From Moniliella sp. 'wahieum' (Eukaryota), in assembly GCA_003971905.1 (NCBI GenBank), contig RSEE01000073.1, forward strand, positions 1-64,000: a DNA stretch of 64,000 nucleotides, read 5' to 3'. The notes beneath the pieces are model-generated. The model searched no databases, was not told the origin of the DNA, and saw only the letters and a list, made by a program, of their open reading frames with translations. This document shows positions 7,310 to 58,291 of the stretch, piece by piece; the first letter of the stretch is position 1; each line of letters starts with the position of its first letter. Position numbers and translations under genes: made by a program.

Positions 7310-7334
7310 GGGGGGGGGGGGGGGGGGGGGGGGG
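7310..7334 (+). repeat. G25 homopolymer
   Basis: Uninterrupted G run. A second G15 run lies at 8504-8518. Confidence 0.9.
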
Positions 7335-17779: not shown

Positions 17780-17889
17780 CCAATGCGTAACGGCCACTGC
17801 GGCGCACGGGGGGGTTACTGGTAGGGTTGCTGAGATTCTGCTGGTCGGGGGTCGCGGACATCTTGGTCGGGCTCGTCTGATTGGCGTTG

Positions 17890-17898
17890 ACGAACGAT
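17890..17898 (-). promoter_or_regulatory. Self-priming (non-tRNA) primer-binding site
   Basis: There is no TGG after the 5' LTR. Instead, element-sense ATCGTTCGT is the exact complement of ACGAACGAT inside the 5' LTR (17970-17962). Confidence 0.8.
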
Positions 17899-17900
17899 AA

Positions 17901-18082
17901 TGTAACAGTCGGGGCTAAACGAGGGAGACCAAGGTCCTGTCAGAGGCGGGGGAAAGGCAAGATCGTTCGTGGGAGGAAACAGAAGGCATCAGGCAGAGAA
18001 CAGAAGCAAAAGGGAAGGGGGAAGAGCGAGAGACACAGGATGCGGAATTGGAAATTGGAGCGAGCTTAGTCATTCGGTGACA
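17901..18082 (-). repeat. 5' LTR of the gypsy element (182 bp)
   Basis: Direct repeat of 12437-12616, followed by the TSD GTAGC. Confidence 0.97.
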
Positions 18083-19210: not shown

Positions 19211-20482
19211 TGGTGCTAGAAGGTAGTAGTAAAATGTAATACCATAGTAACCAGGGAGAGCGAGCATAGGAGGATGAGATTCGTCAGATACGTCGGCCAT
19301 GGGCACGTCAATGACGTTTCTGACGTTCAAGGGGGTGACGTCGGCGATATAACTGACCTGCAGGGGGATGACATCGAGGACATATCTGACGTTCAGGGTG
19401 GTGACATCGACGACGTCACTGACCGCAGCGCGCTGACAGAATTGCCTCACCCGCGACAAATTACTCCTCTGACATTTTTGAAGGTATTTTATATCATAAA
19501 CATAAAAGATGTCTTTTCGTGATCCGCTGTGTACTCACGTGAGTTTCCACGGGTAACGGCAACCTTGCTTAATGGTGCCGAAGGGTAGGAGGTCAATCTT
19601 CTAGTTCGTCAAGGGAACGAAAAACAGAAGCGCGAGCTTCGTACCAAACAGCTGTGGTCCCTTTGCTTTACTAGCGGTTTTACTCTTCGAACTGGGGTTC
19701 TAGCGAGGCCGATGTTTGAAGAGGAGGTCGTAGAACAAGCCGATTAGCCATTTGCCTCCAATGAATTCCTAGTCAATGCGGACAGAGCTAGTAGTCTTTG
19801 TATAGGCTGGCAATGGCCCGCGAGCTACTATGCAATAGGTAGCGGCCAAGAGATGGTCTGTTGCGAGACCTAGTTAGGGTTACTACTGGAAGCGAACAGG
19901 GTGCCATAAGCGTCAGCGATGCCAACCGGTAACGTTTCCAGTAACTAGTAACTCCTGTCCATCGCGCTGAGACAATCCACGGCCAACTTTTTGGGGATGG
20001 AAAGGCATTCTCTGGGAGCTACGGAGGAGGGCTACAGCCCCAGGGAATAGAACTAGCTCTGGAAAGCTCCGTCGGAGTCCGTCAAAACTCTCTCAACTCT
20101 TAATTTGGGCTGTGGGCATCCTCTTAATTTAGGCTGTGGGCATCATGTCCTTAAAACAGAGGGGTCCGTAATGACCGTCAACAGATGTATATTATGGTGT
20201 AGCCCCGATCAGTGCTACCATAGGTATAGTGGAATGCCCATGAGGACATAGTATACCAAAAAAAACTCACATGTGATTGAAAGCAATCAGCTGGCGAATC
20301 AACACACTCGCGCAGTTACAAGTGGCACAGGGAAGGAAAACGGGGATGAAACAAGTAAGTGAATCAAAGATGACGGAACAAATACCGAGAAACCCACCAG
20401 CCCAACATATTCATACTCATGTGGTATGGGATATGAGGTAGGGTGTCTTCACCCATCTTCCCAACCTCCCAACCTCCCTCCA

Positions 20483-23402
20483 TCACGACCGGTTGGTGCT
20501 ACCGTTGGTGATCCGCGGCACACACCACCCAGTATTAGTCAATGGAAATTTGGCATCCACACCCGCGCACACTGTCCCATTGGGTGTCGGGGCAAATGGG
20601 ACTGGGCCGATCGTACCTTCGATATAGGTCAGATTCCCCCATTTTTGTCGTGTGTTGCTGTTGAGTGGTGACCCATCAATATATCCATTCATGGCGTCGT
20701 TAGCGAAGCCTTGATCCTGCCAGATGGCCATAACGATCACGCAAGTGATAGATGAGCCGAGTGACAGCGCTCCAGAAAGGGTATACTTCATCCTGTAGTG
20801 ACATAGTACAGAGGGGAGAAGAAGTGAGTCTTGTGGCAAGAACAACCGAGCCAGGAGCGTGGGGATACGTACGAGAGCCAATAGTTGTGTTGCCGCGCAC
20901 GACTAAAACAGCAGAAAAAGAGTAGACCAAAGAAAACCCAGGATGTGTAGCTAATCGACTTGTTGGAGGTCCAATCAGAGATGCACCCAAAAATCACCGG
21001 CACAACGATCCAGGCTGGTGTAAAACGGTAAATCACCGCCGCCAGAGTGATAGGGCATAGACAGGGAGGGGAAGGAAGGCACCAACCAGGAACCCATACA
21101 AGGTCCAAGAGTAAAGTTGCAGGAAGCCAACGTAAGACCCCACCCCGCCCCAGTATTATATCGTTTTGGTATGCACCCGAATTGGACGCAGTATAAGAGT
21201 TGGTTGACAAGGGTTGAGTGATGATTCCTGCTGGGGCGGAAGTGACTCCTAGCGCGTCACTGGATCCATTCTCTTCGGCTGTGCCTTGTTTGATCCAAAA
21301 CACAGCATGAACCAAGCCACAGGCAATCTGCACGCCAACTTGGGTAAGAAAATTGACACGCGGTGGAATCTTGAAGTAATGGCACAGTTTGGATCCACCA
21401 GCAAATAATGCGGCCTGATGGATGACGTTGTTACTGAACAGGCTGAACAAAACGAGGCTGGTGGTGTTGTGCTCAAAAGAAGTCCTGCAACGAGGCATGA
21501 AAAGTGACGAAGGGAGACTTGGACCCCCGTGATGGCCTGGACCAGGCAGATCGGAACGACAAAAACAGAGGCTATAAGAAGAGCGACGAACAAGCCCCAC
21601 ACCGGGAACCCTGTCTGGTACGCGTGCACTGCCGGAATACAAACAGCAATGCTTACGCAGAAGAGCCCAAGGCTCCACCCAATGGGCACTTGCTTGTAGT
21701 TAGTAAGGATGGCCCGTGTGTGGGGGTCGTACGCGCTAGCTGGCTTTTGCTGTAACCAATTGCGAATATCCGCCCCATGGAAAAGCCCGACATGCACCAA
21801 CACGGACGATACTGCAATAAAGGAAAAGAAGATGGCCACAACACCCATGGCGGACAGATATGGAAACGAGTATGAGTTGTACTCATTGGAATCAAACCGA
21901 AAAGGTTCCTCTAGAGAACGGTTGCTGGCGTGTAGACTGAGATACAGGTACTCCGCTGCCATGAAATCGAATGGGCTTGTAGTCGAGAAGGGAATATGGC
22001 CCATGTGGTGGATGTTGGTACACATGAGAGCTACGCCGATTACGCATCCTCCCAAAATGATCCCGACCAACACGCACACCAAGACGTACGGTGGCACAAT
22101 TAAGGGAGATAACCCTTTCGCCGTCACAACCTCGTACCAATCGAATGTGAGCATATGTAGGCCCAGTCCGCTGTCGCCGCCAAAGATGAGGTTGATGGCA
22201 AACGAATCTGGCGCTATCCAAGGTAAGAAGCTGAATGTTCGCATTGGCGTGAAAAACAACCGTGGTACCAATTCCCATACCGCGATGAGCACCAGCACGC
22301 CCCAGAACACGTATCGCATATGCCAATGGGTGGCGCGGATCCCATGCAGAGCAGTCAGCACAGCCGAAGTCTCCAGCTGCACGGGCCAGACCAGCGGCTC
22401 AGGCCACAGACCAGCACCTTGTGGGCCAGATTGGCCAGAGGAAAGCCGAGGAGGGGGGCACCAATGGAGAGAAGAAAGATGAACCCTCGTTTCCAAAGTG
22501 TCAACTCTCCGGGGAGGGAATCATAATCTGAGGTTACATAATTTGCGTTCACTAAAGCGGTAAGCATGAAGAGGGTCTGGTTGGGGCCAGTGGTGATGCC
22601 CGCAATAACGGTAAGCAGCCTGCGAGAGACCAAAGTTAGAGCAGCTGTGGAATAACAGAGAAATATGGTGAGGGCGTCAGGATGATCCCAAACGTACGCA
22701 TGCTCCTTGCAGTTGAAAGGCCCGGGATTGAAGAAATGTTTGAAGGGCCAGTGGTCGGGGGTACGGCACCTTGGACAAAAGGGTACCCAGCCCATAAGCA
22801 AACGGCTGAATAAAGACGGACCCTATCAATGTCGAAGCGTCGCCAAGAGAAAAGACAACATCCAACTCAAAGTACAAGACCGAGAGGCCGACAGTGATCA
22901 AGGATCCCATGAACCAAACACGTACCGTGTTAATTGGTAAGGAAGGATCGTCCTGATTGGGGACTGTGGCGCGAACTTCAGGTAGAGAAGATATGGATTG
23001 GTTAAAATTGGCGTCATCATCATCGGCCGTGGAGATAGAAGTGTCGCGGAGGGAGATGTTTTTGCATTGGATACTGTCCTTGTTCATATCCATATCGTTG
23101 TCAGGACGGCGATGGAACATCTCCAACAGGTGCAATCTGTCATCAGGATTGATGGTGGCATCCTCCGGCATGTGTCCAAGCAAATATGTCCGCAAGTAGT
23201 TGCTCGTGTCGAAGGATCCGGGACGGATAGAGTCCTGGCGGCGGTTGGATGTGGGATCGTCATCAGCGGGAGGAGCATCAATGGCACCTTCTAATGATTC
23301 TCGATCAAAGTCTTCAGAATCGGAGAGTCCCTCCGGCGGGTTCGGCATGGACAATAACGATAATGGGCCGGTGGCCTCGGCGTCGACCTTGGTACTCCAC
23401 AT
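20483..23402 (-). pseudogene. OPT-family oligopeptide transporter, copy 1. At least 5 frameshifts (pseudogene or assembly indels); introns 22697-22620 and 20872-20793
   Basis: PEVRATVPNQDDPSLPINTVRVWFMG; NPGPFNCKEH; LGLHMLTFDW; SPLIVP; DPHTRAILTNYKQVP; KLCHYFKIPPR. Frame changes at ~22760, ~22410, ~21470, ~21157 and ~21030. Confidence 0.88.
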
Positions 23403-24791
23403 CTTAGGAGGAGTAAGCGGCTCGAGGACAATGATGAAAGAAAGGGAGATAGTGGAGGCGGTAAGCACGAAGAGGGGTCCGGTGAGCTGGGCTCTGTTCT
23501 GTACCTAGCCAGCCTCTGTTCTTTTTATCGCCCCTGTATCTTTGGTCTACTCCTGGTAGGGGTGCGTCTGGGCTCTGGTTTGTCGGGACGTTGAACAAAC
23601 CCATGCACTCTGTTGTGTCTTAATAGCGGAGTATATCCCCATCGATCCTTGCAACTAAGATCCGGTCCCTTCCGCACGATCGAGGAGATCAATGGTGGGA
23701 GAGTAGGGTCCCTAACCGTATCCGGCTTCACTTATTTGGTCTTTGGGATCAGACCCTTGTAAGCTCTAAGTTTTGAGCTGTCGGATCTGAACGTCAATTT
23801 TCCATCTGGGGGCGTCATTCTCGCTGTGATATTTTCTCGTCCTTATACGTTACACGCCTTGCCTGTTTCTGTAGATAAGAGCGGGTACCCAGTGGCCTTG
23901 TTACTTAGAGCGTTTTTCATGCTTGACTGTTTCCATTCCCGACTGAGTATGGGAACCATTCCCTATAGTTTTGATCTGTGATCCGTTTTTACAGTCCTGT
24001 CGATCAGTCGCCATTATTCCGTATTCTTTCTTTGTTACATGCCAATTCCTTAACGCTCCTGTGGTTGTATATAGCCTTTAAGTCGTTCTTTAGTTTGTTA
24101 TTCACCCCTAACGAATCATTTCGGCTTCTCTTCATTTCGTCTTAAGTCATTTGATCTTTCATCTTTGTAACAGCATCCTTTTCAAATCCATCCTTGACCC
24201 ATTACAGGCAACTCCCACGGCGACCCTACAAGAGTGTAGTTGTACTTTGGCGCGGCCTGTCCGACCCTCTCTTTGCCTACGCCAATCTCGCGGCCAACCC
24301 TTCTCAGTACCACGAACTGACAGCACCGCGAAGCCTTTGGAACGCCGGGAGAAGGATGAGCTGCTTCGCCTGCTGGAACAAACAGAATGCGACAAGAACG
24401 CCAAGTATCAGGGACGCACTCAAGATCCGTTTTCCCCCTGGTTGTGACGACACGATGATACTACGGCACGAACTGACATCGGGCAAGATGCTGGCGCAGT
24501 CGAAGGATTTGACTAATATTAGATCCGGCGCGATCCATCACCCTGTGACAGATGGGGCGCATATACTATGTTTTGTAGAGAAGACGCTCCCGCAGTGTTT
24601 AGTATACAGTGTCCCAGTCGTGGATTAGGTGAAAATGCAGACAAAGAAGTTCTCAACACCCAGGATACACTTGCACTTGCGATACGGGCTCGGGACGGCA
24701 CCACACAGAGTTAAAAAGGTCAACTGGATCTGCTTCAAGGTGACCACTTTACCTTATGAATGTTTCACGCGTGCCCGTGTGTAGCCGTATG

Positions 24792-24888
24792 GGCGAGATA
24801 GCGAAGTGGTCTAACGCGCTGTGTTAAGGATGATCGTTGTCCGTAACCGCAGTCCTCCGGGGCGTGGGTTCGAATCCCACTCTCGTCA
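24792..24888 (+). tRNA. tRNA-Leu(AAG) with a 17-nt canonical intron (24830-24846)
   Basis: Acceptor stem GGCGAGA/TCTCGTC+A. D-loop AAGTGGTCTAA. Anticodon stem CTGTG/CGCAG with AAG at 24826-24828. Variable arm, GTTCGAATCC T-loop, and a downstream T-run terminator. Confidence 0.93.
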
Positions 24889-37191: not shown

Positions 37192-37476
37192 GACTCCCCA
37201 CTACCACAGGCACTGATCTATCATTTTTGGCGGTGACGCAGGTCAACCTGAACCTGGAATACCATGTCGGATCTTATATGACTTTCACGAGACTGGACAG
37301 CGCGGTCAACCCAAGCTTCAACAAAGGGAGCTTGGCTTGACTGCGCAGAAGGACCAAAGTAAGGAAATGGAATGAAGAGAGAGGGAGAATGAACTCTTGT
37401 AAGTATGGGTGAACCAGAGGAGAGGCGTAAAGCTTGGAAGCTTGAAAGAGGAAAGTTGTATTTTGAAACCGCGATC

Positions 37477-38597
37477 CTACTCGTCTTCTTCGTCATCATC
37501 TTCCTCCTCCATGAGTTGGCGCGCACGCTTGAGAGCATCGGCCTCATGACCATAATGGCCCCTTCGTTTGGCCTCAAAGAGATCTTGCGCCGCTCCTCAG
37601 GTGAAAGGGCGGGGGGCTCCTCATCCGAACTCTCCTCGCCATATTCCGAACTGACGGCGGAGCTGCTACCACCATTCACGGCCCGGAGTGCGGCGGCATC
37701 CAGTCCCACTGCTGCCGAGCTGGCACTGCTCCTCCTTCGCCCAACAGAGGCACGTCGTCCATTCGGGAGGCTGAAGCTAGGAGACCGCTGGAACGGCTTC
37801 GCTCGCTGCCTGCTTGCGAGCTACGCGATTCCCACTCGTCGGACGCGCTGTAGGAGGGACGAGATCCGTGAGGAGGATGGCCAAGACGAGCGTTGGCCTC
37901 GGTGTTGAGCCGTGTTCGTTCGGCATCGGTCGCGGGATCAGGCAGGGACGGGGCCGGGGCCTCATTCGCACCAGATGCGTCGAGTGAAAATCCTGGAGAC
38001 GGATAATTAAAAGAAAAAGAAGTCAGTGTGGGCAAGGGGAGCAGTGGCGCCGCAGGATGCCGGCTTACCCTCGTCTACGAGGTCCATGTCCATTGGGTCC
38101 TCGGCACCCTTGACAAAGGGCGTTTTGGGCTCATCGACCTTCATGCGCGGGGCAGTATGCTCTTTCCACCACTCATTGGAAGCCAGATTCGACTCGTCCC
38201 AATGCAGGCTAGCAAGGCAAAACAGGGCAGGGCAAGGCAAGGAAGGGCAGCGTTAGTTGCACAAGGGCCGTAACAGAGGAACGGGAGCGGCCTGGACAGA
38301 GTACTCACCGGCCGTCAGCGCCGCGGTAGGGCACAGCGTCGGCAGCAAGGTAGGATGCCGTTCAGCTGGCTGCGGTTCTGCACCGGGCGTCGTTCCAGCC
38401 ATGTCGATGTCGGCCGCGGGCTCGCCAGGGGCGGTCGACGGCGCGTCGGCGCTGGCCTGCGCTGGCACGGGGCGGTCGGGCTGGCTGGGGCGGCGGGGGT
38501 GCTTGAGGATGCCACGGAGCGGAGGCGCCGCAGAACCATACGACGGCGGCGGCGTGTGGGTCGAAGACGCGGCAGGCAGGGGGTCCGTTGCGCTCAT
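37477..38597 (-). CDS. GLC8: Protein phosphatase 1 inhibitor-2 (Glc8/IPP2-like); introns 38308-38209 and 38068-37993; 3 apparent frameshifts
   Basis: RGILK, LHWDESNL, MKVDEPKTPF, and FEAKRRGHY..EEEDDDEEDE* motifs occur in order, but need frame corrections at ~38350, ~37788 and ~37582. Confidence 0.85.
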
Positions 38598-39817
38598 GCC
38601 GACGAATCGCAGCGGTGGTCGTCGGCTGGATTGGGGGCCCCCGCCTTTCCCAACGCTTTCCCAGCCCCATCCGTGATCCGAGCGGGCCCGCCACGTACTT
38701 CCGCCCCAGGGCGGAGTTGCGTGCCCCGCCCCCTGCCCCGATTTAAACTTTCAACTGCCCGGGCGCCCACTCTCTCCGACTCCCGGCACATTCGACAGCT
38801 TCTATCATCAACTCGACCGCCGTCGTACAAAATTAACGACGGACCACGGTAACCATGTGGCAAACGAGGCTATATTACTCTTTGAATGCACGTCTTCATG
38901 TTCAATTAATTTGTGCATCAGTGCTAGGAGAGAGAAGCACTCCATACTCCGCCGGCCAGGCTCGCTTGACCCAGCTTATCGCGCCCCTCAAAGTTGGAGC
39001 AGGAGGTCCATGGTGGTGGTAGCAGTATAGTAGTCCAGGACCTTCTTCTCTCCTCCCACGTCATACGCACTCTTCTCTATAATTCAGACCAAAAACAACG
39101 GGGTGTAATAGCAAAGGTGGATATGGAAAGAGTAGTAGAAGAATATCATGTGCGTGTGGGCGATGAACATTGAATCAACATTCTATAAGACCCCCCTCTT
39201 TCGCCAGTTGGTTCTTTCCAATAAGACTGAACATGACAGATCTGTTTGGCAGTCATAGTGGCATGTACTGCGCAAGGTACTACTTGACTGGGTACACCTC
39301 ATATTAGTGAGTTGAGTATATCTCTCTCTTTTGCCCAGCTTGTTACGGGCTAGTGCGGCTGTGACATATGTGAGCCCGCAAAGCCCCCTAATTGTCCTAT
39401 CTCCATAAAAGGAGAGGTTGGGTTCGCACCGCCGGTATTATAAGTGGTAACGGAAGGACAGAGGGACTTGCGATTGATACGACTTTTGATTCGCAACCCG
39501 ACGTCCGATAGAAGGAAAGACTCGGGTGTGCGATCAAGAATGGCTCGGATTGGTGACTTGACGATCAATGCATGAATGAAGGAGAGGGGTGTGCCAATAA
39601 GCAACGAGTTGAGCCCATGGCTTTTTGGTGGAGCAGACAATTAAAGGGTCTTCGTGACCCGACGGTTCGTTTAGCAACGGGTGAAACGAGGAGCGTACCA
39701 AACTCACGCGATGGGTTTCTCAACGATAGGCAGAACGGGCGATGCTCGATGCAGGTGCTTCGGGTCATTCATTATGTCAAGGGTCGACCTCCACCCAGTC
39801 CGTGGCCAAGAGGCTAA

Positions 39818-42800
39818 GGGGGTGTAACGTGGGTGACGTGTATAACGCGCAACGCGTCATGAGTAGTTAACTAGTAACACGTACCCGCACCCTCTCTTCG
39901 TTTTCTCGCATCGCTAGCTAGCTCCTTCTCGCTCTCAAATTGTATCGAACTTAAGTACTCCACCGCTTCTCGTCAACTTTCTCGGCTTAATCCGTACGCG
40001 ACGCGTGTTTGAACCACGCAGATTGCTCAGGCTGTGAGGGGACTGGTCGCTGAGCGTCAGCGCTTAGCTCTCTATAGCGCTGCGGTTACCGGTTAGTGCC
40101 ACTACTAAGCCAATGGTAAGATTGTGAAAGCCTTTGCCCTTGGCTTGAGGCTTGAAGCGTGAAGCGTGAAGCTCGTGAAGTTTGAAGCTTGAAGATGGCT
40201 TGGTTACGGATCTACAGAAGAATTAAGCGGGGGGAAAACGTGTTGCCAGGGTGCAATGGTGGCGACAATGGCGGATCGGCCCACTTTTATTGAGGTGCCT
40301 TTTCGCGTCTGGCGTACGTCGTACACGCGTACACAAATCCATTTATCGTGCGAGTACTGTGTGTTGTTTTCTAGACCAACCTTCAACCTATGCCCATGCT
40401 TACAGCTTAACTGCGCTTAGCGTTAGCGCCTACCATGCATCAAGCCCTGTAAGCGTAAAGCCCTGACATGCCTGACATAAGTACAAGTGTAGATGTCTCG
40501 ATGAGACTGGCGGTCAAAACTGGGTCAACGCGTCAACGAAAAGAGGCTTTGCTCATGCGCTCATGCATGGGCTTTAGAGGGTATATACCACTGGCACCAG
40601 GCGAGGTATACCGCGCGAGATACCGGAAAAACGGTTTCCCCTCTTCCCCTCTAAAAAGATCTGAAGTCTGAAAAGATCTCTGTGGCGCACGATAGCCCCA
40701 CACAGACAACAGGAAGGAAGTATGTCGATGATCGATGCTTATTGATCGGTTACGCTTATACCGTGTATTGCGCAGCATACACCATCGCAAGTGGTGCAAC
40801 ACCAACAAGCAACAGTGGTGCAAAAAAAGGCTGCGCCCTTCGTGCCTCTTGCTTCTTCTCCCTTCAAGCTTCATCTCCATCGTGCTCCCCCCCCCCATAG
40901 TCGCCCCACTCCACCACTCCCGCGGCCTCCCCCTCTTCAAGCGTCAAGCTTCAAGCTTCAGTATCCAGCCAAGCCACTTGTTACCGCGTAGCATGCACAC
41001 ACTCCTCCTTTCCTCGCCCCCCCCTTTTAACGTTTCTTTCCTTTGCCTTTTCTCGTCTGTCAGATATGCATGTCAGATCCAGATCTGAGTCTCTCACACG
41101 TCACACGTCACAGATCACAGGGTCATGCATCAGGTCTCAGGATCTCCGGCACACGTGCTCACAGGGCCCCAATCAGTAGGGCTTTGAAATTTGATCGATG
41201 ATCAATATTCGATGATCGATGGTCGATGATCGATGATCCCCTATCGGCTCGAGAAGGCAGGGCAGAGAGCAGGGCCCCACAGCAAAAGCCTCGAGATCGA
41301 CTGATGCATGATGCATCATCCTTTTTGTGGCCACTGGCTAGAATCTCACGGACGCCCCCCGGGTAATCGAAGTAACTGGCCTCACACAGCCTGAGGCTGC
41401 TGCGCCTATGGAGTGGGATGATGCTGATGTTGACGGCGCTGGTGAAAAGGGGAGCTGGTGTATGATGGCGAGAGTTGAAATTTGAGGCCGGGGAGGCCTG
41501 AGGATGCTGAGATGCAAAAGCACATTGAAGCTTGCGTGAAGCTGCTTTCAGCTCTCAATACCCAATACTCAATCCACTGCCGTTACTATATACATTGTCT
41601 CTATTTTCTTGAAACCCACCCCCCTTATTCAATCTTTTGGATTTGGAAGAGTCGGGGGGTGTCAAGCAGGCCCGAGTGTTAAGGGAGACAGCCAGATTGG
41701 CGTTACGCGCTACGCAGCACGCATGGTACGACGGCCATCGGCCATCGACTATCGACCATGATCACATTTACGGTACCAACCAACGCGTTAGTAACGCGCA
41801 ACGCGTATCGTTTTGCTTATACGAACGCGTCCCGCAGGCCGCAGGGCTGACGCGTGACGCTGATCTCAGCTCTCCCTGGGATCCGACGCTTGAAGCTTGA
41901 AGCTAGCTTGAAGCTTGAAGAGCTTGAAGAGCTTGAAGGATCTCAGATCTCAGATCTCAGACCTCAGAGATCTCAAGCTTCCAGGGTCATCGAGTTATCG
42001 ATCATCGGTCAGGCCGGTCACTAGCTTCACTAAGCGCTAAGCCCTAGGTCACCGATCACCGGTCACCAGTCACCGGTCACTTGCTTCACTCTTAGTCACT
42101 AGCCGCTAGCCTGAAGCAGGTGTCTGATTCTGAGGTCTCACCCTCAGGCGGGGCCTCCGGCCTCACCGGTCAGGCCGGTCTGGCCCCTCAGTACCTCAGT
42201 ACCCTCAGTACTCAGTGACTAGTGAGGCCTCAGGCTCAGGTCCGAAAAAATCGGATCGGTACCAACAGACTGCACCCGTGCTGTCCGCAGCCCAATTTCC
42301 GCTCGATCGATCGTAGCGCTTAAGGAGGCACACCGGCAGAACTCAGACTCAGACAACCGATCTCAGATCTCAGATCTCAGATCTCAGATCTCAGATCTCA
42401 GATCTCAGATCTCAGAAGCGTATCTTGAAGCTTGAAGCTTGAAGCGTGACCCAATTTGGTGCCTGGTGACCAGTGACCGGTGACCCCGGTGACCGGCAGA
42501 TCTCAGAACCAGATCGATCATCGATCTTGAAGCTTGAAGCGTAAAGCTTAAGCTTAACCATTGATCATCGGTGTTCAGATGATCGATGATCCATGGTTGG
42601 TGAACGCGTCGACTGGTCAGCATATCCACGTATCCGAGCGGAGGCTGGTGGCGCGGGAGAGCGAGGTATGCGAGGGAAGCGATGGAAGCGAGGGTGGCGA
42701 GGGAGGCGACGGTGGCTGGGAGGCGAGGCCCGAGGGAGGCTTCAAGGGTGGGGGGGTAAATTTGATGAACTCTTACCTTGTTGATGGCATCCAAGTTCCT

Positions 42801-43307
42801 CCGTGTGTTCCGGGGTTTGAGCACGTAAGATCCCCAGGGATGCATTCTTTTTCATCTTGGAAGTATCTTCCAGCTTCACTCCCGTTACGCGTTACGCGTT
42901 ATGCTTCCGGCTTCAAGCTTCAAGTAAAACATTAGTTTCAACCTAGGGCGCCGGTAGGTGCAAATGTCCCCAAGTTTCCGGCCTTAGGCCGGCCTCAGGC
43001 CTCAGGCCTCAGGCCTAATGCGAAGGCGGCTCAATAAGCGGAGCGCTCAGGCCGAGCCGCTGAGCAGTTGGGCCGGAAATAGAATCTAGCCGAAAACGGA
43101 CGCTGTATCTGGAACAAGAATAGCATTGGACGTTTCGGACCGGGCCGTCCCCGAATTCGGCAATCGGCAATCGCGGGAACGGGGCGTGGAGAGAGTGGCA
43201 AAAGCGCCAAGCGTCGGGTTTGAGACGGTCACCCTCTGCGGTGAAATCCGCTTACATGTTTGCGTTACGTTACACACCACGGTACACACGTTTCATGTTA
43301 CACTCCC
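39818..43307. mobile_element. Possible decayed TIR DNA transposon (PIF/Harbinger-like ends)
   Basis: Left end TAA|GGGGGTGTAACGTGGGTGACGTGTATAACG versus the reverse complement of the right end GGGAGTGTAACATGAAACGTGTGTACCG (12/14 terminal matches). The TSD is not matched (TAA vs TTG) and no transposase is visible. Confidence 0.35.
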
Positions 43308-46300
43308 TTGCCCTTTACCGGTTACCGACGGCCGGTTACCGGTTACCTCGCGTCCCAGAACGTTATGTTGGTAGCTTCCAACTTCAAACGTCAACGCGTC
43401 AACGCATCAACGCGTCAACTCAACGGTCAACGTCGTCTGGTAAACAAAATAATCGATAATCCAAGCGGGGTAAGAAGAAACGGGGAAGAGCCTGCGCGCA
43501 ACAACCCAAAACGGCTCCCAAACGACACCCCTTTTGCAGCGCCATAGCAGATATGGATCGCCTAGCCAGGAAGGCTCAGTCCGGTCCCTTAAGTCCTGTA
43601 AATCAGGTACCACGTTAAACGTTAAACGTTAAAACGTTAACCGGGTTAACCGGGTTAACCGCTTACCGGGGTACTCGTTATACAGTCCAAATGGGAAGAT
43701 CCGGATCGTAAATCGATTCCAGTAACGCGTAACAACGTACTAACCCAGATGTGGGGCAGATTCCACTCGAACAAGGCGACACCGTCAAGGTGAAAAGACA
43801 AATGGGAAAGGGGCCAGAGAGGGGGGGGGCAAAGGGCGACAGAACCGATCGTAAAGAAAGGGAGAAGAAACAAAGAGGGAGAGAGAGAAACGTCACAGAG
43901 AAAAGTAGAGTACAACACGGTCCGAACACACCCATACAAAACAGTACAACAGTCCGACACCAGAAAGTGCAACAGTACACACGGTATACAAACAAGACTC
44001 GTAGAGAGAGGAGACGAGACGAGACGAGACGAGAGAAGGCACGTTCAACGCTGACCCCTTCGCCATGCCCTCCGCACTTGGAGGCCGCTTCCCACGAGCA
44101 AACCCTGCGCGGCGCACCGCTACCGAGGGAGAGGCAGGCAGGGTCCGAACCCAAGCTCATCGACGATGAGCGGGACGACAAGGAAGCGAAGCAGGACCGG
44201 CTGGTCGACTGTGTCCCACATGTCCACGCCGACGAGGCACTCGAGAAGGAGAAGGTGGATAGATGACCACCATACGACGTCGAAGGCGACGAAGGTTCCG
44301 ACGACAACGAACGGTGCGTGCGGCGCAACCGTACCTGAGCCATGTCAGAACTAACCCCCGCGCCTACAGTGGGCGGTTGTTCGTCGAATACGGACTCGGG
44401 CTCGAGCTCGAGCTCGGGCTCGGGCCTGGGAGGAGAATGGCGGTGGGTGGAAATGTCCGCATCCACAGCAAGATCGGCGGTACGGGTGGCGCTCCCAGTG
44501 GTGGCGGTGGGGATGGGGCCATTGATGACTTGGGTGGGAGCAGACGAGGGAGAGGCGTAGTCATCGGGAAGAACAAGGGACTCGCGACCGCGACGAGTGG
44601 CACCCAATGGAACGGCATGCAACTCTTCCTCCTTCTGGGGCGGAGTGGCCATCAAGGAAGGGAAGGACCCTGGCCACTCGGCAGCGGTGGCAGGCAGAAC
44701 AGGGGACGAGCAGCAGGTTGAAAAGGCGAGCGGGGCGGGCAAGCGGGCGCGGATGGAGGCGTGGGCAGGCCGCTTACGCGGCTCGGGTAACGCAGGGGGC
44801 AACAAGGCTGCGCCGAAAGGAGGCGAATCAAGTGCCAGATCGATGGCAGGCCGATCCAGTCGGCGGTAGGCGTAGGCGTAGGCGCTGGCCGGGCCGATCC
44901 GAGGAGGGAAGTCGGCGTCGACATGGAGGCCAAGCACGTTGCCTCTGGGCAGAGGAGGCGCGCACAGGTCGACAGGGCTCGAGGTGTGCATCGCAGGGGC
45001 GGAGGAAGAGGGGAGGGGCGCAGGTGGTGCAAGGAAGGCAAGGCAGAGGGGAGGGAGGGGGTTAGGGCCCGATGGGGCCGAGGGAGGGGTGCTGATATAA
45101 ATAGAGGACGGGGCAGCGCACTGCACCGTAGCGCACCGTAGCGTGACCGCGTGTCTGCTCGCTCCCGCAGCCCAGGCGGCTTCAAGGCAAGGATCGATGA
45201 GATCTGAGATGATTGATGGTCGATGATCGATTATTGATGATTTCGATGATTGATGATGGATCGATGATGCATGTCGATGATGCAGACGAGGATCGATGAT
45301 TGATGACTCCATCATGGGTGATCTGTGATGTGTGATGTATGTTAATCTGTGATGGGGTGTGATGTGTGATGCGTGGCTAGAAGTGCATGTGGCAAAGGCC
45401 ATCAGCCACCGCTGCCACGCCCCGCGGACGTATCGGATGGGCAGCTCGCCGGGGGGCCACAGCGCCGAAGGAGGTGGGCATGTGGCCAGTGACAGTCACC
45501 GACTACTGAGCACATACTGAGTACTGCGTATGAGTCTCAGATCTCAGGCCGACTAGCGACTGCCCTGAGTTGACCCTGGCAGACCCCACGCCGCAAAGCG
45601 CAGGCCATCCGTCACATGCACATGTCACACCATCATCCTGATTTGCCCTTGTGAGATCTGGGATCTGGGATCTTGATACGATTGATATCAGACGCAGCCA
45701 GCTGTGGCGCTATGCTGCGCTCAGGTAGTCAGACACTCTGTGCCCAGGGCCTGAGTACCAAGCATCAGGCTGAGGCGCTGTGCAGCGCTGAGCTGAGCCC
45801 TTCTGCCTGACCTGTGCTTGGCTGAGCGCTTGAGCCTGTTTTGATTCATGCGTTGCAGCAGCCGGGTATTCTATAGTGTCATCTATCATCAATCATCGAT
45901 CATCACAGGCACCCCCATATTCTTTCCGGCGCCACCACTCCAGGGCCCCGTGGGTAGACCGGGCACTGGGAACGCGGGGACGCGGGGACGGGGGGCCAAG
46001 CTTCAAGTCGGTTACCGCGATCAGCTCGATCAGCCCAAAATCAACGTAACACAACAACGCGTCGACGTTCACCGGGTTCACCGTTAACCCGAACACTCAA
46101 TCATCCAAGATTTGTGTCTCCCGCTCCGCCCTACCTGTGTGTGGGGTTAGATCTTAGAAGCTGTGGGTCGGCACAGATATGAAGTGCACGAAGTTCTCGT
46201 TTGCGGTTTGTCGTTTGTCTGTTGTTGTTTGACGTTTGTCTGTTGTCAGTGATCGAGTCTTCGATGTTCATTTTTTCGAAGATCCCCCCAGACCGCAGCT

Positions 46301-48460
46301 CCGTTGGTATCCTGAGGCCCGAGACCCCCAACAGAAATAAGCGAGACCGATTCTTTAATAACCGTGTGTCCAACTGGATCGCTCTGATGGACTGATCTCA
46401 CACCCATTTTTCCCTCAACGTTCAACGACCAACCCCACCGAGAAGCTGACCCTTGAGTTCAAGTTGAACGTGTTGAGAACGTTGAACGTTGACGCGTTGA
46501 CGTGCCAAGCAAGCATGGAGGGACACGGCGTACAGTAGTGTCTTTTAGAACCGGAAGCAGTGGGTTGGAATAAAGTTAATAAAGACTTGGATTTTGCAGA
46601 GCTTCAAGCTGGAACCTTGAAGCTGGAACATTTAAGCTTGAACCCCAGTGACTTATACTGCTGTAGTTACCTAGTTACCAGTTAGTACAAGTTACTTATT
46701 AGTTAGCGATCGGCCCAAGCTTATTTCCACCTGACTAATGACTAGTGACTGTAGGTTTTTGACAGGCACTATATCTCACGTGCCCACTGAACCATGTGTC
46801 AAGCGTGTCGCACCCGGTAGGAAATGAATATCAATACGTTTTGTCATTTCGCTGGTATCTGCGTCCCGATTCGCACACCTGAGGGAAGGTCTTCAAGCTT
46901 GAAGCTTGAAGCTGGAAGCTCTTGAACAAGGTTAAAGCTTAAAGCGCTAAAGCTAAAGGCCACTAACGCTCGACAGGCCCAAGGCCTAAGGCCTAAGGCC
47001 TAATCGATAATCGATAATCGACCTGATCGATGAGCTCGATGAGCGCTGAGCTTGAGCCGCTCAGGCTGAGATCGATCATCGATCATGCATCATGCACACA
47101 GTCGGCCATCCAGAGGGCGGCAAAGGATGGCCAAAGTGCGTGTGGGGGAAATACCCGCGTTAATATCTTGCCAGATCTTGCCTTGAGTGCGTAGATCCGA
47201 GGCTTCCCCTTCCTGTGTCTTGCCACTGCCCTGCCCCGGAAGCCGGAACAAGCCTGCCGACTACACGCACACGTGGCGATGCTTCCAACTTCACGTACAT
47301 CATGCATCACATATCACACACTGAGTATACTCTCAGAAAAGAAAACCCCCATGGAACCCTTCCAGGAAAGACAGACCCTACGTAGTCGTCTATTGTTGGC
47401 CCAGTTGCGAAGTTGCTAATAGCTTCATTGCATTACTTGTGAGTTACTTGTTACCGAGTTACTAGTTACGCGTTACGCGTTACGGGTTACGGGTTACCAA
47501 CTTCCTTTGGGGGTCTATATGTCCCTAGCTCTTTGCGTGAAGCTTCAAGCTTCAAGCTCACCAAACTCATCAAGTGACTTATACATGTAGACACTAGCAT
47601 CCACACCCTGCGAAGTGCAATCGATGTGTCGAAAGCCACAGCTACACGCATCAATCGGCAGTTCTCAATTCAACTTGACCAGGGCGCTACGCGCTACAAT
47701 ACGATGGGTTTGTTTGTATAGATGGTGTAACATGTCACTAATCACTCACGCATGATATATCGAACATTGATAAGATCTAAAATTGCTAATCGAAAGTCGA
47801 TAAGATTCTCGATCCTTTAGCGTTACAGAACGAAGATATCTGAGAACCAAAGGTTATGGCACCGGCCATCGCGTTGCCCCATTTCCTCCCATCGAGCATC
47901 CCAGACCAGATCGACCATCGACCATCGACCATCGGCCATCGACCATCGACCATCGACCATCGACCATCGACCATCGACCATCGACCATCGACCATCGACC
48001 ATCGACCATCTCTCTCCATCGATCCCATCGAATATCCCCCATCGACCGACCATCCGAACCGTCCACTCTGCGTTGCAGGTAAGAAGACTGAGTACTGACA
48101 GATGGTCCGACGCTCATCGGACGATCATCCATGATCATCACACAAGCCATGCGACCACCGGTCACTAGTCACTATAGTCACTAATCACGAGCTAGTCACT
48201 GGCCCTGCCAGAAGCGTCGCGCGTCGCCCTCACACACCACTGACTGGGCCCAGGGTGGATCGATGGATCAAGCGTCCAAATTCACGCTTCAAGCATCCAG
48301 CTTCCGGTCCGGAGATCGAGCCTCGAGCTGTCCATAAGCTTTTTGCGGTAGTGAAGTGATTAATGATTGTCTCCAGTGGCTATTAATAGTGACTAGTAGT
48401 GAAAGGGACGAGTGTGATCTCAGAGCCCGAGGGCCCAGGCGCTCAGGCCTCAGTCGACCT
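39840..48460. repeat. Field of period-7 palindromic micro-repeats (A-NNNN-T palindrome + 1 nt)
   Basis: Examples: (GATCTCA)x8 at 42359-42414, (ATCGACC)x14 at 47910-48007, AAGCTTG/C, AGGCCTC/A, AACGTTA/G, ACGCGTT, ACCGGTC/T, ATCGATG/A, ATGCATG/C, ACTAGTC and AGCGCTN clusters. Confidence 0.9.
44045..44991 (-). CDS. Hypothetical Ser/Pro-rich protein (~315 aa)
   Basis: GC-rich open frame from ATG 44991 (MHTSSPVDLC..), with a TATTTATAT box and pyrimidine tract upstream and (CTCGT)n plus T-rich sequence downstream. The 3' end is uncertain: TGA at 44045 needs one frame shift, otherwise the frame runs to 43678. Confidence 0.5.
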
Positions 48461-48522
48461 AGCGTATTGAGGAAAGAGAGAAAAAAGAGAGAAAAAAGAG
48501 AGAAGAGGTGAGACGCCAATTG

Positions 48523-49030
48523 CTGTAGTGGCGCCCATAGCCCGGAGCCTGGAACCTTCGGATTCCTTGCACTGAATATTCCTTCTTGGCCGGCAGGACT
48601 ATTCTCTAGTCTCTGTAGCTCATGTGTGCAACGTAATACACCATCATCGATCGTCTGCCTGCTCTCTGGCCTTTCAAAAGAGAAGAAAGAAGAAAGACAC
48701 GCACAACCGGGATCTATAAATCATGCCACATAAGATCTAAGATCTACGGTGGTACAACGTTCCACGGTTGAGTATTGACATGGCAGAGCTGTGGGAAGAT
48801 AGTATGATGTAAAACTGGTATATATGCCTGTGAGGCTTGAGGAGAGATACCGTGGTGGCACACCCAGTGGAAGACCACAGAGAGGAACGAGATAGATTGG
48901 TATTGCATTGCACATGAGTTTCTTCACCGAAGCTAGATCCTAGTCCTGTCATCCAGGAAGGAATAATATCGCAAAGAATGTAGCAAAGAAGGGACCCCGA
49001 GTTTGGGGCTCTACTGTGGCGCCACTACTA
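48523..49030. mobile_element. Degenerate Tc1/mariner-type MITE (~510 bp)
   Basis: Inverted termini GTAGTGGCGCC (48525-48535) / GGCGCCACTAC (49018-49028) with further patchy pairing. Flanks are TG and TA, consistent with a decayed TA TSD. The interior is non-coding. Confidence 0.55.
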
Positions 49031-50762
49031 TACATGACGCATGATATGTGATACTCCATTCGGAATACACACACTCTCTTTACGTGTACCTCCCTCGTTC
49101 CTCACATGTCACACCATCGTATTAATTATACGTCTTGGGCCTATGCCGCCTTTTTGGATCGTGCCGTTTCTCCACCATCACAGTGTGTTCAGGACGTTCA
49201 GGCCAGGAGGCGAGCATTGATGGCTGACCTCGGTCTCATTACGCTGACATTCCCGCAGATCATGGATTTATTCATTCATCAAAGTCTGACGTTGGATGCA
49301 GCCACCGCGTTCTGCCTGTCCCACCTGCTCTTCCAACTCATCCTGCGCCAGATGCTTCGCCTCACCCGCTCTCGCACTGTCCTGAGCTTTGGTCATCTTG
49401 ACCCCTGACGAGTCACCTTCACAGATTCATCCGACATCCTCCGTCTCGCGCTCGTATAACCTGCAAAAGTATACACATGGATCGACTGGGTCTCTCGTCT
49501 CGTTCCTCACCTCGGTTCCGGTTTGCCCTTGACCCTCGCCTCGTTTCTGGCCTCGTATCTTTCGTTATTAGCACTCAGTTCTCCCTCTTGACCCGCTTCC
49601 CCTTTACACTGCAGGCCTATGGTATTTCCTCTGCTCCCCTTCACTTCTAATATGAAACCTGCCTGCTCTTATACATCCAATTATGATGGCACGTCGCCCA
49701 CCACTCCTTTCCCCTCGCTCCTTGTTCCAGTCACTCCACTTGGCACTCCACTCGAGAAGAACTGCCCTTTCAATCGGCTCTCTTCTCCTTCCTCCCCAGC
49801 CCATCGGAGCTCCCTCCCGCTTTCACGGCTGGCCACTGATGTGAAACATCCTTCTTGGACGCTACCTGGCTCTGCCCGACGAATGGCAAGGGACTATGAC
49901 TCGCGAACCGCCTACTAACGTTCACGCCTGTATTCTTTTTGGACCTTGGATCTGAACGCGTTCAGTCCTCCGTGAGTCTTGTCTCCGATGGGGGAAGGTC
50001 TCCTCCGGGAAGCCGGCAAACCCGTCACAGTCCCCCCGTCAGAACAGGGCATCTGACTATAGCCATGGCAGCAGCCTATGAAACGTATCGGCATGTGCAT
50101 CACCACATAGGGAGCTCTCAGTAGTCTTGACTATTTCTTTACAATCCCTGTACCGTGGCAGGCAACGAGAGATACACATAAGGCCTATAAAAAACACACA
50201 TGCTCCCGTTTCCCAATCACCGCTATATTCGTATACATGAGACACTGTCCAGGTAATCCATCTCCTCTCTAGCGGTCCGTACTGACTAATAAGGAAAGAG
50301 CATGTTTGGCATCAACATCGTTACAGCGCGTTTCTCATATTCACCGGATGGAAGAAGTCGTGGGGGACGTGGTATGGTAATGAGTGCCAAAATGTGGTTT
50401 ACAGGGTCTCATTCCTGTTGGGTTTGAGCCCCAATTGTCCCACCTGAAAAACGAAAACGGGGCAACGCAGAGGCAAGGGGGTTGGGTATATACAAACTGA
50501 CCCTGGATGCTCAATAAAGAGGGAAGAACGCACAGAGACTCGACAGATAGGAGGACAACTCTGATGCCATCGCGATTAGATGGGCAGATAGAAATAAAGG
50601 CAGAAGGGGGGGAAAGGGATTCCGTCGTTGACGCTGAGATCTGCCGACGGACTCCGGCTGGATTTGCAAGGGGACAACTAGGAAATGCCGGGAGGCGCGT
50701 TCCTGTTGGGAAAAAATGTGTCGTTCCAGACCAGAAGTTTTTCCATGGTATCGCCGTAATGA

Positions 50763-53534
50763 TTATTGGGCCCAAGGTTGTTCAGGTGATCGAAGAAGCG
50801 GGGTAAAGCGGGTATCAGTGCCATCTGTAGCATATTCCATGGCCGCGATGATGGCTGAACAAAGCGAACTTCCCACAGCAGCGGCGGCAGAGAGGATGTA
50901 ATTCATCCTGTCGACAACCAATCCAGAGATTTTGTTAGAGAATAGAGTTAGCCTCATGCATCCCGTGAACAAAATACAAAGGGAAGATAAGGCAATGGAC
51001 GTACGCAATCCAATAATTCAACTGTCTACGAGGGAGAACAGTAGGTGAGTGACAACCCCCCAGAAAAACCAGGAGGTCCAGCAACCCGCTACATAAAATG
51101 CGAATTGCGATGTACCACCAAAGAAGAGCGGCCAATGGATCGAGCGGAGGTGAGCAAAGTGATTCACTGGGACGAAACCCGTCCGGCAAGGTACAAGAGC
51201 AGTGGCGCGACTGCACCAATAAGGAAAAAGTACAGAGTCCACTGGTATTGCTGTAGGAAGCCGTTCTTGTGAAGTCCGACGCCAGTCCAATATATGGGAT
51301 CGTACAATCCTGTAACCCGCGGTTTGGCTCCAGGGCTGATCTTCAGTGTATCGGAACTCCACCCCATCCAGATTCCACTTTGCAAGATTGAGCAGGCTAA
51401 TTGGGTTCCCACGAGTACAAAGAAGGTGATCCGTGGCGGGATCTTAAAGTAGACTGTCAGTTTGGAGCAGCCACAGTAGAGCATCGCCTGTTGGATGGTC
51501 CCCGGGCAGCATATCTGAAAGAGCGGTAGGATCGTCGTGTGCCCAGGCAGAGAAGCACTAGCAATCAACGTCGCCAAGTGCTCCACACACTTCAGCTCCA
51601 CCGATGTCAGGCCCACGACAATGCCCACTGGAACAATGAAGATTGCAGCCAGCGCGAGGGCAAGCACAATCGCCCAAACCGGTACCGAAGTGTGGTACAC
51701 GTGCACCATGGGGATGGCAAAGACAAAGGCAACCAGTAGCAAGCACAGGTACCACCAGGTGGGAACAGCCGGGTAGCGGGCGAGTTGGGCGTGGGGGTCA
51801 GGCGAATCAGCCACATTGGAAACCTTCCACCAGCGACGTAGGTCGCCGCCATGGAAAAGCGGGGTGTGTACGAGTAAGGCAGTGCAAGCAGCATAGGAAA
51901 ACGCCCAGGTCATGACGGTTGTGACAGAAAAGTATCCCTGGGGTGGATGAGGCGAATCAAATTGGGGGAGATCTAGATACATGTCTTGGGGCAATGGGTT
52001 GATATGCATGTCGGTGGCATTCAGCTCTGGGTCCCAGACTATGTCGAGAACGCCATAGGGAACGCAGGCGGCTTGGTTCCGGTTGGTAAAAAAGATCGGC
52101 AGGGCAATGACCCACATCGCAACGGCGAAGCCACAAAATACATTGACCAGCGCGCCCCATGGGACGATCAACGGCGAACCCAACGCTGGGATCACTAAAT
52201 TCCAGTCCAGGCACCAAAAAGACCAGCCCATGCCACCCAGTGAATCAAACAATAGATTGACCATAAAGCTGGACGGCGCAATCCACGTTGGCCACTGGAA
52301 CCATCCCAGAGGTCGGTAGAAGAAGTCTGGGATCCAGTGCCAGACGAACATGGCCGTCGCCACAATCCAAAAAACGCGGCGACGGTTCCAGTTGCCACGG
52401 CGAACCCCGTGTAAAGCCGTCAATATTGCACTGGTCTGAAGCTGCTGAGGATAAACCAGCTCACCAGGCCAAATGAGAAGACGTGTGGCAAGACCTGCCA
52501 AGGCAAATCCAAAGAATGGGGTCGAGAGATAGATGAGAAAGAGGAAGCCTGGTGGGAATGTTTCTCTTTTTTTGTGCCACTCTCCGTCAATAGAGACATT
52601 CCGGCCAAGTATTGCAAGGTTAAGTTGGGCCCCATGGCAACCGCAGCAACGATGGTGCAGATCCTGCGCGAAACAATCACACATGTCAGACAGAGGTCTC
52701 CTTACCTGGGACCTCAACGTCTCGGAAGTGGGGACGCACGTATGTTCCTTGAGGTTGAAAGGGCCAGGGTTGATGAACCAAGCCAGGGGCCAGTGCGATG
52801 GGTACGGTATTTTCGATAGCGCGAAACCCAAACAGTAGGTGAATGGCTGTACCAATACCGCACTTGTAGACACAAATACCTGTGGGTTGGCCCAGTATCC
52901 TCGGGTCTCCATAGCAACAAGGGCGGTGGTGAGGCCGAGGGCCAGTACAATGGAAAGCAGCCAGGTGCGGAACGTGTTGTATGGCATATCTGGGTCGTCT
53001 TCGTTAGGCACGACTGCGCGCACATGCGCATCAGCCAAGTCGGGACCCTTCTCTTCATGCGTCGTTTTCATCCCCATTGTTGGCGCCTTCACCCCACTGG
53101 TCCGATCCCCGGTTTTCGTTCTTCGCGGGTCCTGTCCCAGAGGGTTCATCATGTCGACCAAGCAGTGGATCGTTGTGATGGAGCGCGTCTTCCAAGAGCG
53201 ACTCTGATTCCATCCCATTCTCGTTGTCGTCCTCGACTGTGTTTGTGAACGAAAATGCGGCAGTATTCTTGTACGTCGCACGGTTTGTTGATGTTATGCT
53301 ATCAGTTGTGAGAGGCCGAAGAGAGTCGATGGCATCATCGGACGTGGACGGAAGGCCCGAGCTTTTGGAAAGTATGTGGGTCCGTTCCTCTTCATCTGCT
53401 TCGTTCAGCCCGCTTGAGGGAGGAGTCGGCATGACGTTAGTTTTTTGGCTTGCTTGTGGTGTTGGTGTTAGTGCTCGGTGTTGTTGTTGTTGTTGGTCGT
53501 GGTGGATTACAGTCATTGTGAGTTGAGCTTGCAT
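50763..53534 (-). pseudogene. OPT-family oligopeptide transporter, copy 2. At least 4 frameshifts (pseudogene or assembly indels); introns 52739-52664 and ~51004-50908
   Basis: VRAVVPNEDDPDMPYNTFRTW; FINPGPFNLKEH; LIWPGELVYP; LGSPLIVPW; DPHAQLARYPAVPTWWY; KLTVYFKIPPR; RMNYILSAA. Both intron positions match copy 1. The 3' end is uncertain. Confidence 0.88.
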
Positions 53535-57224: not shown

Positions 57225-58291
57225 TGTTGGTTGTGCGATCTGAGGACGAGAAGAACAGAATGCGTGTGGGCACAAGGAGACCCGCTCCTTGATGTCCAGC
57301 ACGACTGGCAGAGAGATGGGGAGGCGGGGGAAGCGAGGGAAACAGGGGAAACTGAGGAAACGGAGGAACCGGGGAGGCAGCCAGGCCTCCGGCGAGGGAT
57401 GGGGGATGGGGGACGGGGGATGGGGGATGGGGGATGGGGCGTGACGAGGACCAACGGCCACAAGACCAGCAGGGACCGAGGCGGGCAGAAGCCAGAGACC
57501 AGCTCGAGCGCTGCGGAGGAGAAGAGGATGTGGGGGGGTGGGGCAGGCTTAGCCGGTGCCATCGGCTTCTGATCGGCTGGCTGGCCGATGATCCGCTTCG
57601 ATATACGATAGCAGGCGGCAGAGACATAGATATAGACACTGTTCCAACCCCCCCTTCCTGCTTGAACGTTTCAACTCCACAGCACAGGGCACTGGACCAG
57701 TCTCCTCTCATTGCTGCGGCTCAATTTAACGTTTTAACGTTTAAAATTTAGCCCTGCTCCCCCGTATATCAATCGCCGCGACGTCGCCGGTTCCACCAGT
57801 TGGACCTAACCAGATCTAAATGACAGGCGCTGTTTCGGACTCGACCTAGTAGGTTCGGCGGTGGGCTCAATCTTCCATCCGAGTGCCATCTGTGATCATG
57901 CAGACAACGTGTGGGTCCCGGTCACCAGCAGAACTTGCCCCCTGGGGCTCTGAGGCACAAAGCTTGAAGCTTGAAGCCGCCTGGCTATGTGAGGACTGAA
58001 TTAAGTTCTGAAGGTCTGAGCGCGAGGGCGAAAAAAAAGGCATCTGGTTCGACAGGAACTAGTTGTCAACATGCAAAAAAGGGTATTCTTGGCAGCGGAG
58101 GAGGTGACGAGCTGATTGGGGCGAAGCAAGGTGGATGTGTTCCAACCCGTCACACTAAGCGAAGCATAAGCATAGAACCCCGGTGGGTGGGGGGAAAGGG
58201 AGAGTGTGGACTTTTGCCCGCAATGGGGCGAGGCATCAGACATCAGACATCAGACATCAGGCCTCAGGCCTCAGGCATCAGGCCTCAGGCA

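Follow-up and report, generated by a model that had tools for sequence, protein, structure and literature searches.

Contig RSEE01000073.1 of the fungus Moniliella sp. 'wahieum' (GenBank assembly GCA_003971905.1), of which we analyzed positions 1 to 64,000 (the window), contains an intergenic field of period-7 repeats at 39840–48460, in which 6-bp palindromes starting with A and ending with T are separated by single bases. This repeat field is a genuine and strongly non-random feature. Its arrays are probably stacked empty donor sites, i.e. excision scars, of a cut-and-paste DNA transposon that would use a 7-bp target and leave flush flank hairpins, with P nucleotides (mirror copies of the terminal bases) resembling those of V(D)J joints and with later extension by slippage.

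The repeats are anchored at TNA and confined to one region

All 25 arrays listed in an earlier sequence-only reading of the window were found in place with the hexamer named for them (25/25), and both of its quoted examples of a spacer flip, at 46891 and 41303, read as described. We compared the field 39840–48460 with 30 dinucleotide shuffles. Cores consisting of a 4-bp palindrome between two T-N-A triplets (TNA) occur 85 times in the field versus 1.3 times in the shuffles (maximum 3), and analogous cores with ANT, GNC or CNG as the anchor number 0, 3 and 3, respectively. An A..T hexamer palindrome followed by one base and the same hexamer was counted 23 times versus 0.0 in the shuffles and never for the C..G, G..C and T..A classes, which bears out the predicted enrichment of A..T palindromes at period 7. 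While the inner tetramers are indeed as diverse as had been noted, their number is 14 of the 16 palindromic tetramers rather than about 12 (ATAT and TATA are absent). In the field 27% of the TNA, versus 5% of those outside, are followed by another TNA at +7, and recurrence at +3 to +5 shows no excess over background.

The field contains 153 A..T hexamer palindromes, of which 85 are flanked by TNA on both sides, 44 on one side and 24 on neither. Since 25.8 palindromes without a flanking TNA are expected by chance, the excess is entirely TNA-linked; the statement that every junction is T-N-A holds for the first two groups but not for these 24. The spacer is kept in 74 of the 85 cores, replaced by its complement in 5 and changed otherwise in 6. 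Flips thus exist, as the sequence-only reading had stressed, but with 5 of 11 changes they are not enriched over the expected one third (p=0.29), and the argument built on them is not significant.

Strictly defined marks reach a density of 90.5 per 10 kb in the field, compared to 5.8 to its right, 0.5 to its left and 0.13 in a background control of 64 unrelated PheRS loci from a metagenome search with PheRS beta (698,733 bases, partly redundant, mostly gene-dense and with no close relative among the 64). The field extends past 48460 to about 49200 and is interrupted by a scar-free stretch with an open reading frame (ORF) at 43750–45150.

The duplicated unit is a heptamer with mirrored borders

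In the following a site is written as L2 L1 T x A R1 R2. The duplicated unit is the heptamer nnTNAnn, so that the initial parse into A-NNNN-T plus one spacer base was two bases off. When continuation of the period into the flanks by at least two bases was scored in 66 arrays, it was found on both sides in 11, on the left only in 16, on the right only in 25 and on neither side in 14; 52 of the 66 arrays hence extend into a flank, 41 of them on one side only and with no significant departure from left/right symmetry (p=0.21). Tandem copying of a pre-existing palindromic heptamer would extend the period into both flanks, which most arrays do not show. The elementary change is hence T x A R1 R2 R2' R1' T x A R1 R2, or the mirror image of it. 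This rule correctly predicts both outer flanks in all cases (5/5) in which two different arrays share one TNA.

Arrays of period 8, 9 and 11, which the sequence-only reading did not mention, carry the information that is decisive for the parse. They contain the whole nnTNAnn twice, usually as a non-palindromic heptamer, and the filler in between mirrors the heptamer end. Between exact nnTNAnn repeats, 14 of 15 two-base fillers are of this P type (chance 0.16), the sole miss being a shifted register of a fitting site, as are all five one-base fillers (5/5, chance 0.45). Of 21 such joints, 17 have at least one side on which the direct repeat ends exactly 2 bases from the TNA. The earlier proposal of hairpin-derived, P-nucleotide-like inverted copies followed by slippage, which is visible in the arrays at 42359 and 47910, agrees well with these fillers. 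The break, which had been placed at TNA itself, would instead lie two bases outside TNA on each side, as model test, fillers and repeat borders indicate for a unit of 7 bp. Likewise, two dyad axes 3.5 bp apart do result in these arrays, but they are the outcome and not the cause of period 7. On the sequence level, the arrays display a 7-bp duplication centred on TNA, even mirror symmetry at its borders, both orientations and re-use of sites, nearly all joints having no more than two mirror bases at either end.

A 7-bp flush-hairpin model fits more TNA pairs than other geometries

For the model test we used 289 pairs of TNA that lie 7–13 bases apart and have the same or the complementary spacer, with swapped flanks as the null. 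A model with a 7-bp duplication and flush hairpins explains 94 of these pairs at 49 sites (null 13.6), compared to 0, 10, 22 and 5 pairs for flush models with 3, 5, 9 and 11 bp, respectively. Models of the hAT type, in which the hairpin has an unpaired tip base, account for 0 (5 bp), 3–4 (7 bp), 14 (9 bp) and 8 (11 bp) pairs, with nulls of 1.2, 2.7, 2.3 and 1.3.

A tighter rule, which demands two 4-base overhangs and was applied to same-spacer pairs, fits 71 of 116 pairs at distance 7 (null 11.8), 5 of 18 at distance 8 (null 0.2) and 14 of 31 at distance 9 (null 0.1), followed by 0 of 12 at distance 10 and 1 of 19 at distance 11. Ten of the 14 distance-9 fits lie at non-palindromic heptamers. 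The distance-7 fits include 44 on non-palindromic heptamers; in 37 of these one overhang is retained in full and the other lost entirely, and 5 are plain tandem heptamers.

Sites were hit repeatedly and the marks decay

Undoing the strict scars step by step yields at least 81 events (63 of +7, 12 of +9, 5 of +8 and 1 of +11 bases), which amount to 600 bases or 7% of the field; Markov controls gave 0–1 event in 20 sequences. The events fall on 54 of 430 ancestral TNA sites, and 15 sites were hit at least twice (6.7 expected). At least two joint classes are found at 10 sites, 8 of which mix lengths or left and right types, and different joint classes at one site are not a product of slippage. 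Slippage did act afterwards, as seen at 42359, where the arrays are pure, and at 47910, where an array of 14 copies has no TNA left.

The marks also form a decay series, with 63 loci that are perfect, 68 with one mismatch (null 4) and 93 with two mismatches (null 34), which suggests a long activity; some of the near-misses are +8 or +9 joints. Eight host coding stretches carry no junction in 542 TNA. In the non-coding DNA at 3150–10500 we found 1 perfect and 9 one-mismatch marks (null 1.1), mainly decayed ones versus the fresh marks of the field; the process reached this region as well, but far less or longer ago. CpG depletion marks neither the field nor its surroundings. A preference for G/C at the heptamer ends (74 of 106) is strong relative to outside DNA, modest relative to unhit sites of the field and reaches one base past the heptamer, and was not used.

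A model of transposon excision and hairpin opening

We propose that an element, on insertion, would cut its target L2 L1 T x A R1 R2 at a stagger of 7 bases and thereby duplicate the heptamer, whose length and centre are read from the DNA, and that the element itself would later excise flush at its ends. Each flank would then be sealed as a hairpin without an unpaired tip base, consistent with the even symmetry of the joints. A host nuclease may open the hairpins about 2 bases off the tip and so create the 4-base 3' overhangs R1 R2 R2' R1' and L1' L2' L2 L1. End joining that keeps one overhang whole together with 0, 1, 2 or 4 bases of the other would give the +7, +8, +9 and +11 classes that are found. 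The +7 joint, in its left or right type, is the commonest class and may in addition be steered by pairing of the next mirror base T in TNA. As each +7 joint would turn one copy of the TNA palindromic and the overhangs at such a heptamer would be complementary, later visits would add clean 7-base units, which slippage may extend further. Hence, period-7 repeats would grow at these sites, with the A-NNNN-T grammar and any inner tetramer. The sequence-only reading was in our judgement right to propose a mutational rather than coding origin with a transposase as the likely source.

Several observations weigh against excision scars of this kind. No element with inverted ends was found in the 64-kb window, where a search for heptamer, inverted ends and heptamer returned pairs of arrays only, and Pfam detected no DNA transposase in 118 + 82 window ORFs (stop-to-stop, above 62–110 aa, so that short or spliced remnants could escape); the element may lie elsewhere than in the window. 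The +2 hairpin-opening nuclease is presumed for this fungus. In the strict fit, 45 of 116 same-spacer distance-7 pairs and 14 of 66 arrays fail, and 12 pairs fit a 9-bp flush model but not the 7-bp one, although by eye these are mostly one-base-decayed arrays or shifted registers. Longer fillers between nnTNAnn repeats do not follow the mirror rule well, since neither of the two three-base fillers and one of the two four-base fillers is P-type. The +7 class alone cannot separate a 7-bp from an asymmetric 5-bp duplication, and the claim of 7 bp thus rests on about 20 longer joints. Counts from one array depend on each other, and both the total of 81 events and the excess of re-used sites (15 versus 6.7) are raised by slippage. 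At about 9 events per kb the load would be very high for a transposon, and the hot field contrasts with 7.3 kb of other non-coding DNA that have 1 event only. Finally, more than 90% of the excisions of the Mutator-like element Muta1 in yeast are precise (PMC5499845).

Alternative explanations

The lack of an element in the window, the very high local density and the re-use of sites would also suit a scenario with no resident element. Here nnTNAnn would be cut at a stagger of 7 bases by a host nuclease or by a RAG-like transposase that is domesticated or abortive, and the ends would be rejoined after fill-in, hairpin formation or fold-back. We regard such element-free cutting as unlikely, since the +9 and +8 joints would need a complete double-stranded heptamer on both flanks before hairpinning, as integration and gap repair would provide, and hairpinning a 7-base overhang directly would produce a loop of 7 bases and leave nothing duplicated. 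A further reading does without a nuclease and invokes template switching during replication at short quasi-palindromes, with slippage afterwards. Template switches make inverted repeats and spacer inversions (PMC5453318), and this reading could draw on the slippage at 42359 and 47910 and on the few spacer flips. It is nevertheless quite improbable: the joints re-copy 5–7 bases and need a return point upstream of the departure point, a class not observed in the human-chimp and human-human data in the accessible part of PMC5453318, the joints have a constant offset of 2 bases and are always centred on TNA, with the ANT, GNC and CNG controls near background, and the flips are not enriched. The template-switch repair offered in the sequence-only reading is disfavoured on account of this return point and of the fixed anchor and offset.

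The invariant TNA had also pointed that reading to a PIF/Harbinger-type transposase, whose target duplication is a 3-bp TWA/TNA (PMC12730594), and a 3-bp model with TNA as the hairpin loop indeed fits 52 pairs (null 7.7). Yet 46 of these 52 are shared with the 7-bp model, so that the TNA-loop model explains 6 pairs by itself compared to 48 that fit the 7-bp model and that it misses. The flush 3-bp model explains 0 of 289 pairs, TNA is not above background at +3 to +5, and the non-palindromic +9 joints largely refute a TNA/TWA target. Excision by these transposases is described as generally precise (PMC4561436), yet P bases dominate the joints here, with the caveat that precise events would be invisible. 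We therefore judge this source very improbable, and grant no more to selection for a code, protein-binding or centromere-like, in which TNA half-sites recur at a spacing of 7. The latter would agree with the sharp regional concentration and with the position of the field 5' of two minus-strand ORFs, but the filler is templated by neighbouring bases with 14 of 16 values, the +8, +9 and +11 variants disrupt the spacing and the marks decay. A sequencing or assembly artefact is hardly credible, as the long host ORFs of the window are intact and free of junctions (0 in 542 TNA) and the marks obey a strict rule and show a series of substitution decay. A tyrosine recombinase with a 7-base overlap was dropped by reasoning, since it would give a looped hairpin without duplication.

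Comparison with known transposases

RAG nicks DNA at a position that gives a flush, even flank hairpin. The enzyme behind the excision scars proposed here would likeliest belong to the CACTA/EnSpm-Transib (CMCT) clade, with Mutator-like and Kyakuja elements as alternatives. The flush even hairpin of RAG, which belongs to this clade, is matched by the even 7-bp model with its 94 pairs. As far as the accessible sections of the papers cited here go, EnSpm, Transib and RAG1 have motifs of the catalytic region in common (PMC12730594), and flank hairpins are formed by hAT, Transib, RAG and the Mutator-like element (MULE) Muta1 (PMC5499845). The clade differs from the field in its duplications of 2–3 bp for EnSpm and 5 bp for Transib versus 7 bp (PMC12730594, PMC12810828, PMC1131882); Transib and RAG duplicate their 5 bp at GC-rich sites (PMC1131882), whereas the unit here is centred on TNA. 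Active basidiomycete elements of the CMC clade are known in the EnSpm/CACTA cut-and-paste elements CNIRT6 and CNEST of Cryptococcus neoformans (PMC12810828), but CNIRT6 duplicates 3 bp and CNEST the 2-bp TA, and the word 'footprint' does not occur in the accessible text of that paper. A joint geometry for CACTA elements was not found in the accessible part of PMC6379663. A DDE transposase bearing the motifs C(2)C and H(3-4)H, together with CAC-type termini, would be expected of the clade. No transposase family matched any of the 200 window ORFs, and self-BLAST and a scan of the 64 kb for CAC-type ends gave no paired ends, but the element may lie outside the window.

V(D)J coding joints resemble the joints of the field in their even, palindromic P nucleotides and in the opening of hairpins by Artemis:DNA-PKcs mainly 2 nt 3' of the tip, which leaves 4-nt overhangs (PMC2175297). 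They mostly lose the P bases, whereas one end keeps them almost always in the field. The hAT elements come close in other respects, as Ac/Ds excision involves a flank hairpin and short P insertions, which in Candida are rarely longer than 2 bases (PMC5873905), and hAT7 of rust fungi makes 7-bp duplications (PMC12730594). The palindromes of Ac/Ds are odd and centred on the complement of the element-adjacent base (PMC5873905), whereas those of the field are even and the odd 7-bp model explains 3–4 pairs versus 2.7 by chance; the odd centre is demonstrated for Ac/Ds, and hAT7 may differ. The flank hairpin of Muta1, with 43+43 nt, is compatible with flush symmetry (PMC5499845), but Muta1 duplicates 8–9 bp and MULEs in general 8–10 bp with long terminal inverted repeats (TIRs), and the 9-bp flush model explains 22 pairs versus 94. 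Kyakuja (KDZ) of Laccaria makes a 7-bp duplication in a basidiomycete (PMC12730594), although it has CA..TG ends instead of TIRs, and no KDZ protein matched among the 200 window ORFs. The field appears to behave like RAG/Transib-type excision, while an assignment to a named family goes beyond the sequence evidence.

Since scars of this type are known from hAT, Mutator and V(D)J recombination, the term 'undescribed mutator' was an overstatement. The scar class is already known; for the 7-bp TNA-centred target, the geometry and the density, a literature search, which did not include subscription papers and Repbase, found no published description.

Tentatively, and as a possible rather than a probable extension of the excision model, a leading intergenic mutator in this smut-related lineage may be a transposase of the EnSpm clade that is RAG/Transib-like and has its target shifted to the 7-bp nnTNAnn. 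At least 1 in 8 TNA sites would have been visited in hot regions, hairpins would open at a constant +2 offset, as they do in V(D)J recombination of vertebrates, and each visit would prime a heptamer microsatellite. If so, the genome would offer thousands of coding-joint-like repairs as a natural library and hold a new route of microsatellite birth. Excision scars of the kind proposed would make transposon traffic readable from empty sites alone, and they would reveal how long the target of an unseen transposase is, where it cuts and at what offset the hairpins are opened. They would point to a cut-and-paste family in fungi whose 7-bp, TNA-centred target is unusual and whose flush hairpins are RAG-like, trace a self-priming path from excision scar to microsatellite and supply many natural fungal end-joining products for comparison with V(D)J joints. 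Nothing suggests a function of the scars for the host.

Features of the field and of the window

The features are compiled in Table 1.

Table 1. Positions of features in and around the repeat field; 'scar' denotes a putative excision scar
Feature	Position	Strand	Remarks
Left scar cluster, non-coding	39840–43749		52 strict junctions among 283 TNA; no Pfam match above cut-off in ORFs of at least 62 aa
Right scar cluster, non-coding	45151–48460		32 strict junctions among 238 TNA
Tail of the field past the end given in the sequence-only reading	48461–49210		scars at 48731, 49102 and 49187
Scar-free low-complexity ORF splitting the field, putative gene, 437 aa from Met	43681–44991	-	0 junctions among 24 TNA in 43750–45150 (p=0.04)
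One non-palindromic heptamer used three times with three joints	42186–42216		+8 (1 P base), +9 (2 P bases), +7
Stack at a palindromic heptamer	41889–41938		+7, +11 (2 P bases per side), +7, +9, +9
Switch site	41183–41203		one original TNA with a +7 scar of each type (left and right)
Switch site with spacer flip	42214–42234		
Switch site joining two period-7 arrays	46981–47021		
Switch site	47071–47096		
Switch site followed by decaying array	47457–47497		
Full non-palindromic heptamer duplicated with 2 P bases	47029–47051		followed by right-type +7 scar
Period-7 array leading into a pair of +9 joints; heptamer of the joints non-palindromic	43612–43661		
Two isolated +9 scars	46019–46082		heptamer, 2 P bases, heptamer; at 46019 and 46067
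Longest pure palindromic array	42359–42416		7 successive cores; slippage or repeated clean ligation
Heptamer array with TNA lost	47910–48010		14.4 copies; slippage-only amplification
Scar-free non-coding margin beside the left minus-strand ORFs	38750–39839		sharp left border; 0 junctions in 66 TNA (p=1.4e-4 at the field rate)
Outlying scars directly downstream of the ChAPs gene	57963–58290		single scars also at 4593, 19942, 55120 and 63338

The ORF that splits the field had no Pfam match and no homologue among 8000 candidates of 240–765 aa; a TATA-like stretch lies by it near 45095. On the left side, unannotated minus-strand ORFs at 37224–38750 adjoin the field, one of which contains an RGILK stretch that we take to resemble a PP1-docking motif, as a candidate only.

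The PheRS beta subunit encoded in the window has its best named match in Tilletiaria anomala (57%), followed by other Ustilaginomycotina, and two relatives match at 87% and 81%. Further genes encode a RhoGAP, an Arf, an AMP-binding enzyme, an importin, ChAPs and two OPT-family oligopeptide transporters, the latter at 20788–23504 and 51164–53534 on the same strand and 30 kb apart. Insertion guided by small-RNA-type genes, as in Dada-like elements, was rejected locally, since ARAGORN reported 0 genes and Rfam a single tRNA 15 kb away. This tRNA gene, which Rfam found and ARAGORN missed, lies at 24792–24888 (+), is 97 bases long and probably contains an intron.

The window also holds nested long terminal repeat (LTR) retroelements. 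A Ty3/chromovirus-type element at 12437–18082 encodes Gag, protease, reverse transcriptase (RT), integrase and a chromo domain in interrupted frames, has 180-bp LTRs of 98% identity and a 5-bp target duplication, and carries no scar in 144 TNA; it is nested in a Ty1/copia-like remnant at about 10600–19300. At the start of the window, a 40-bp minisatellite with 10 copies and a variable purine-rich insert occupies 24–447.

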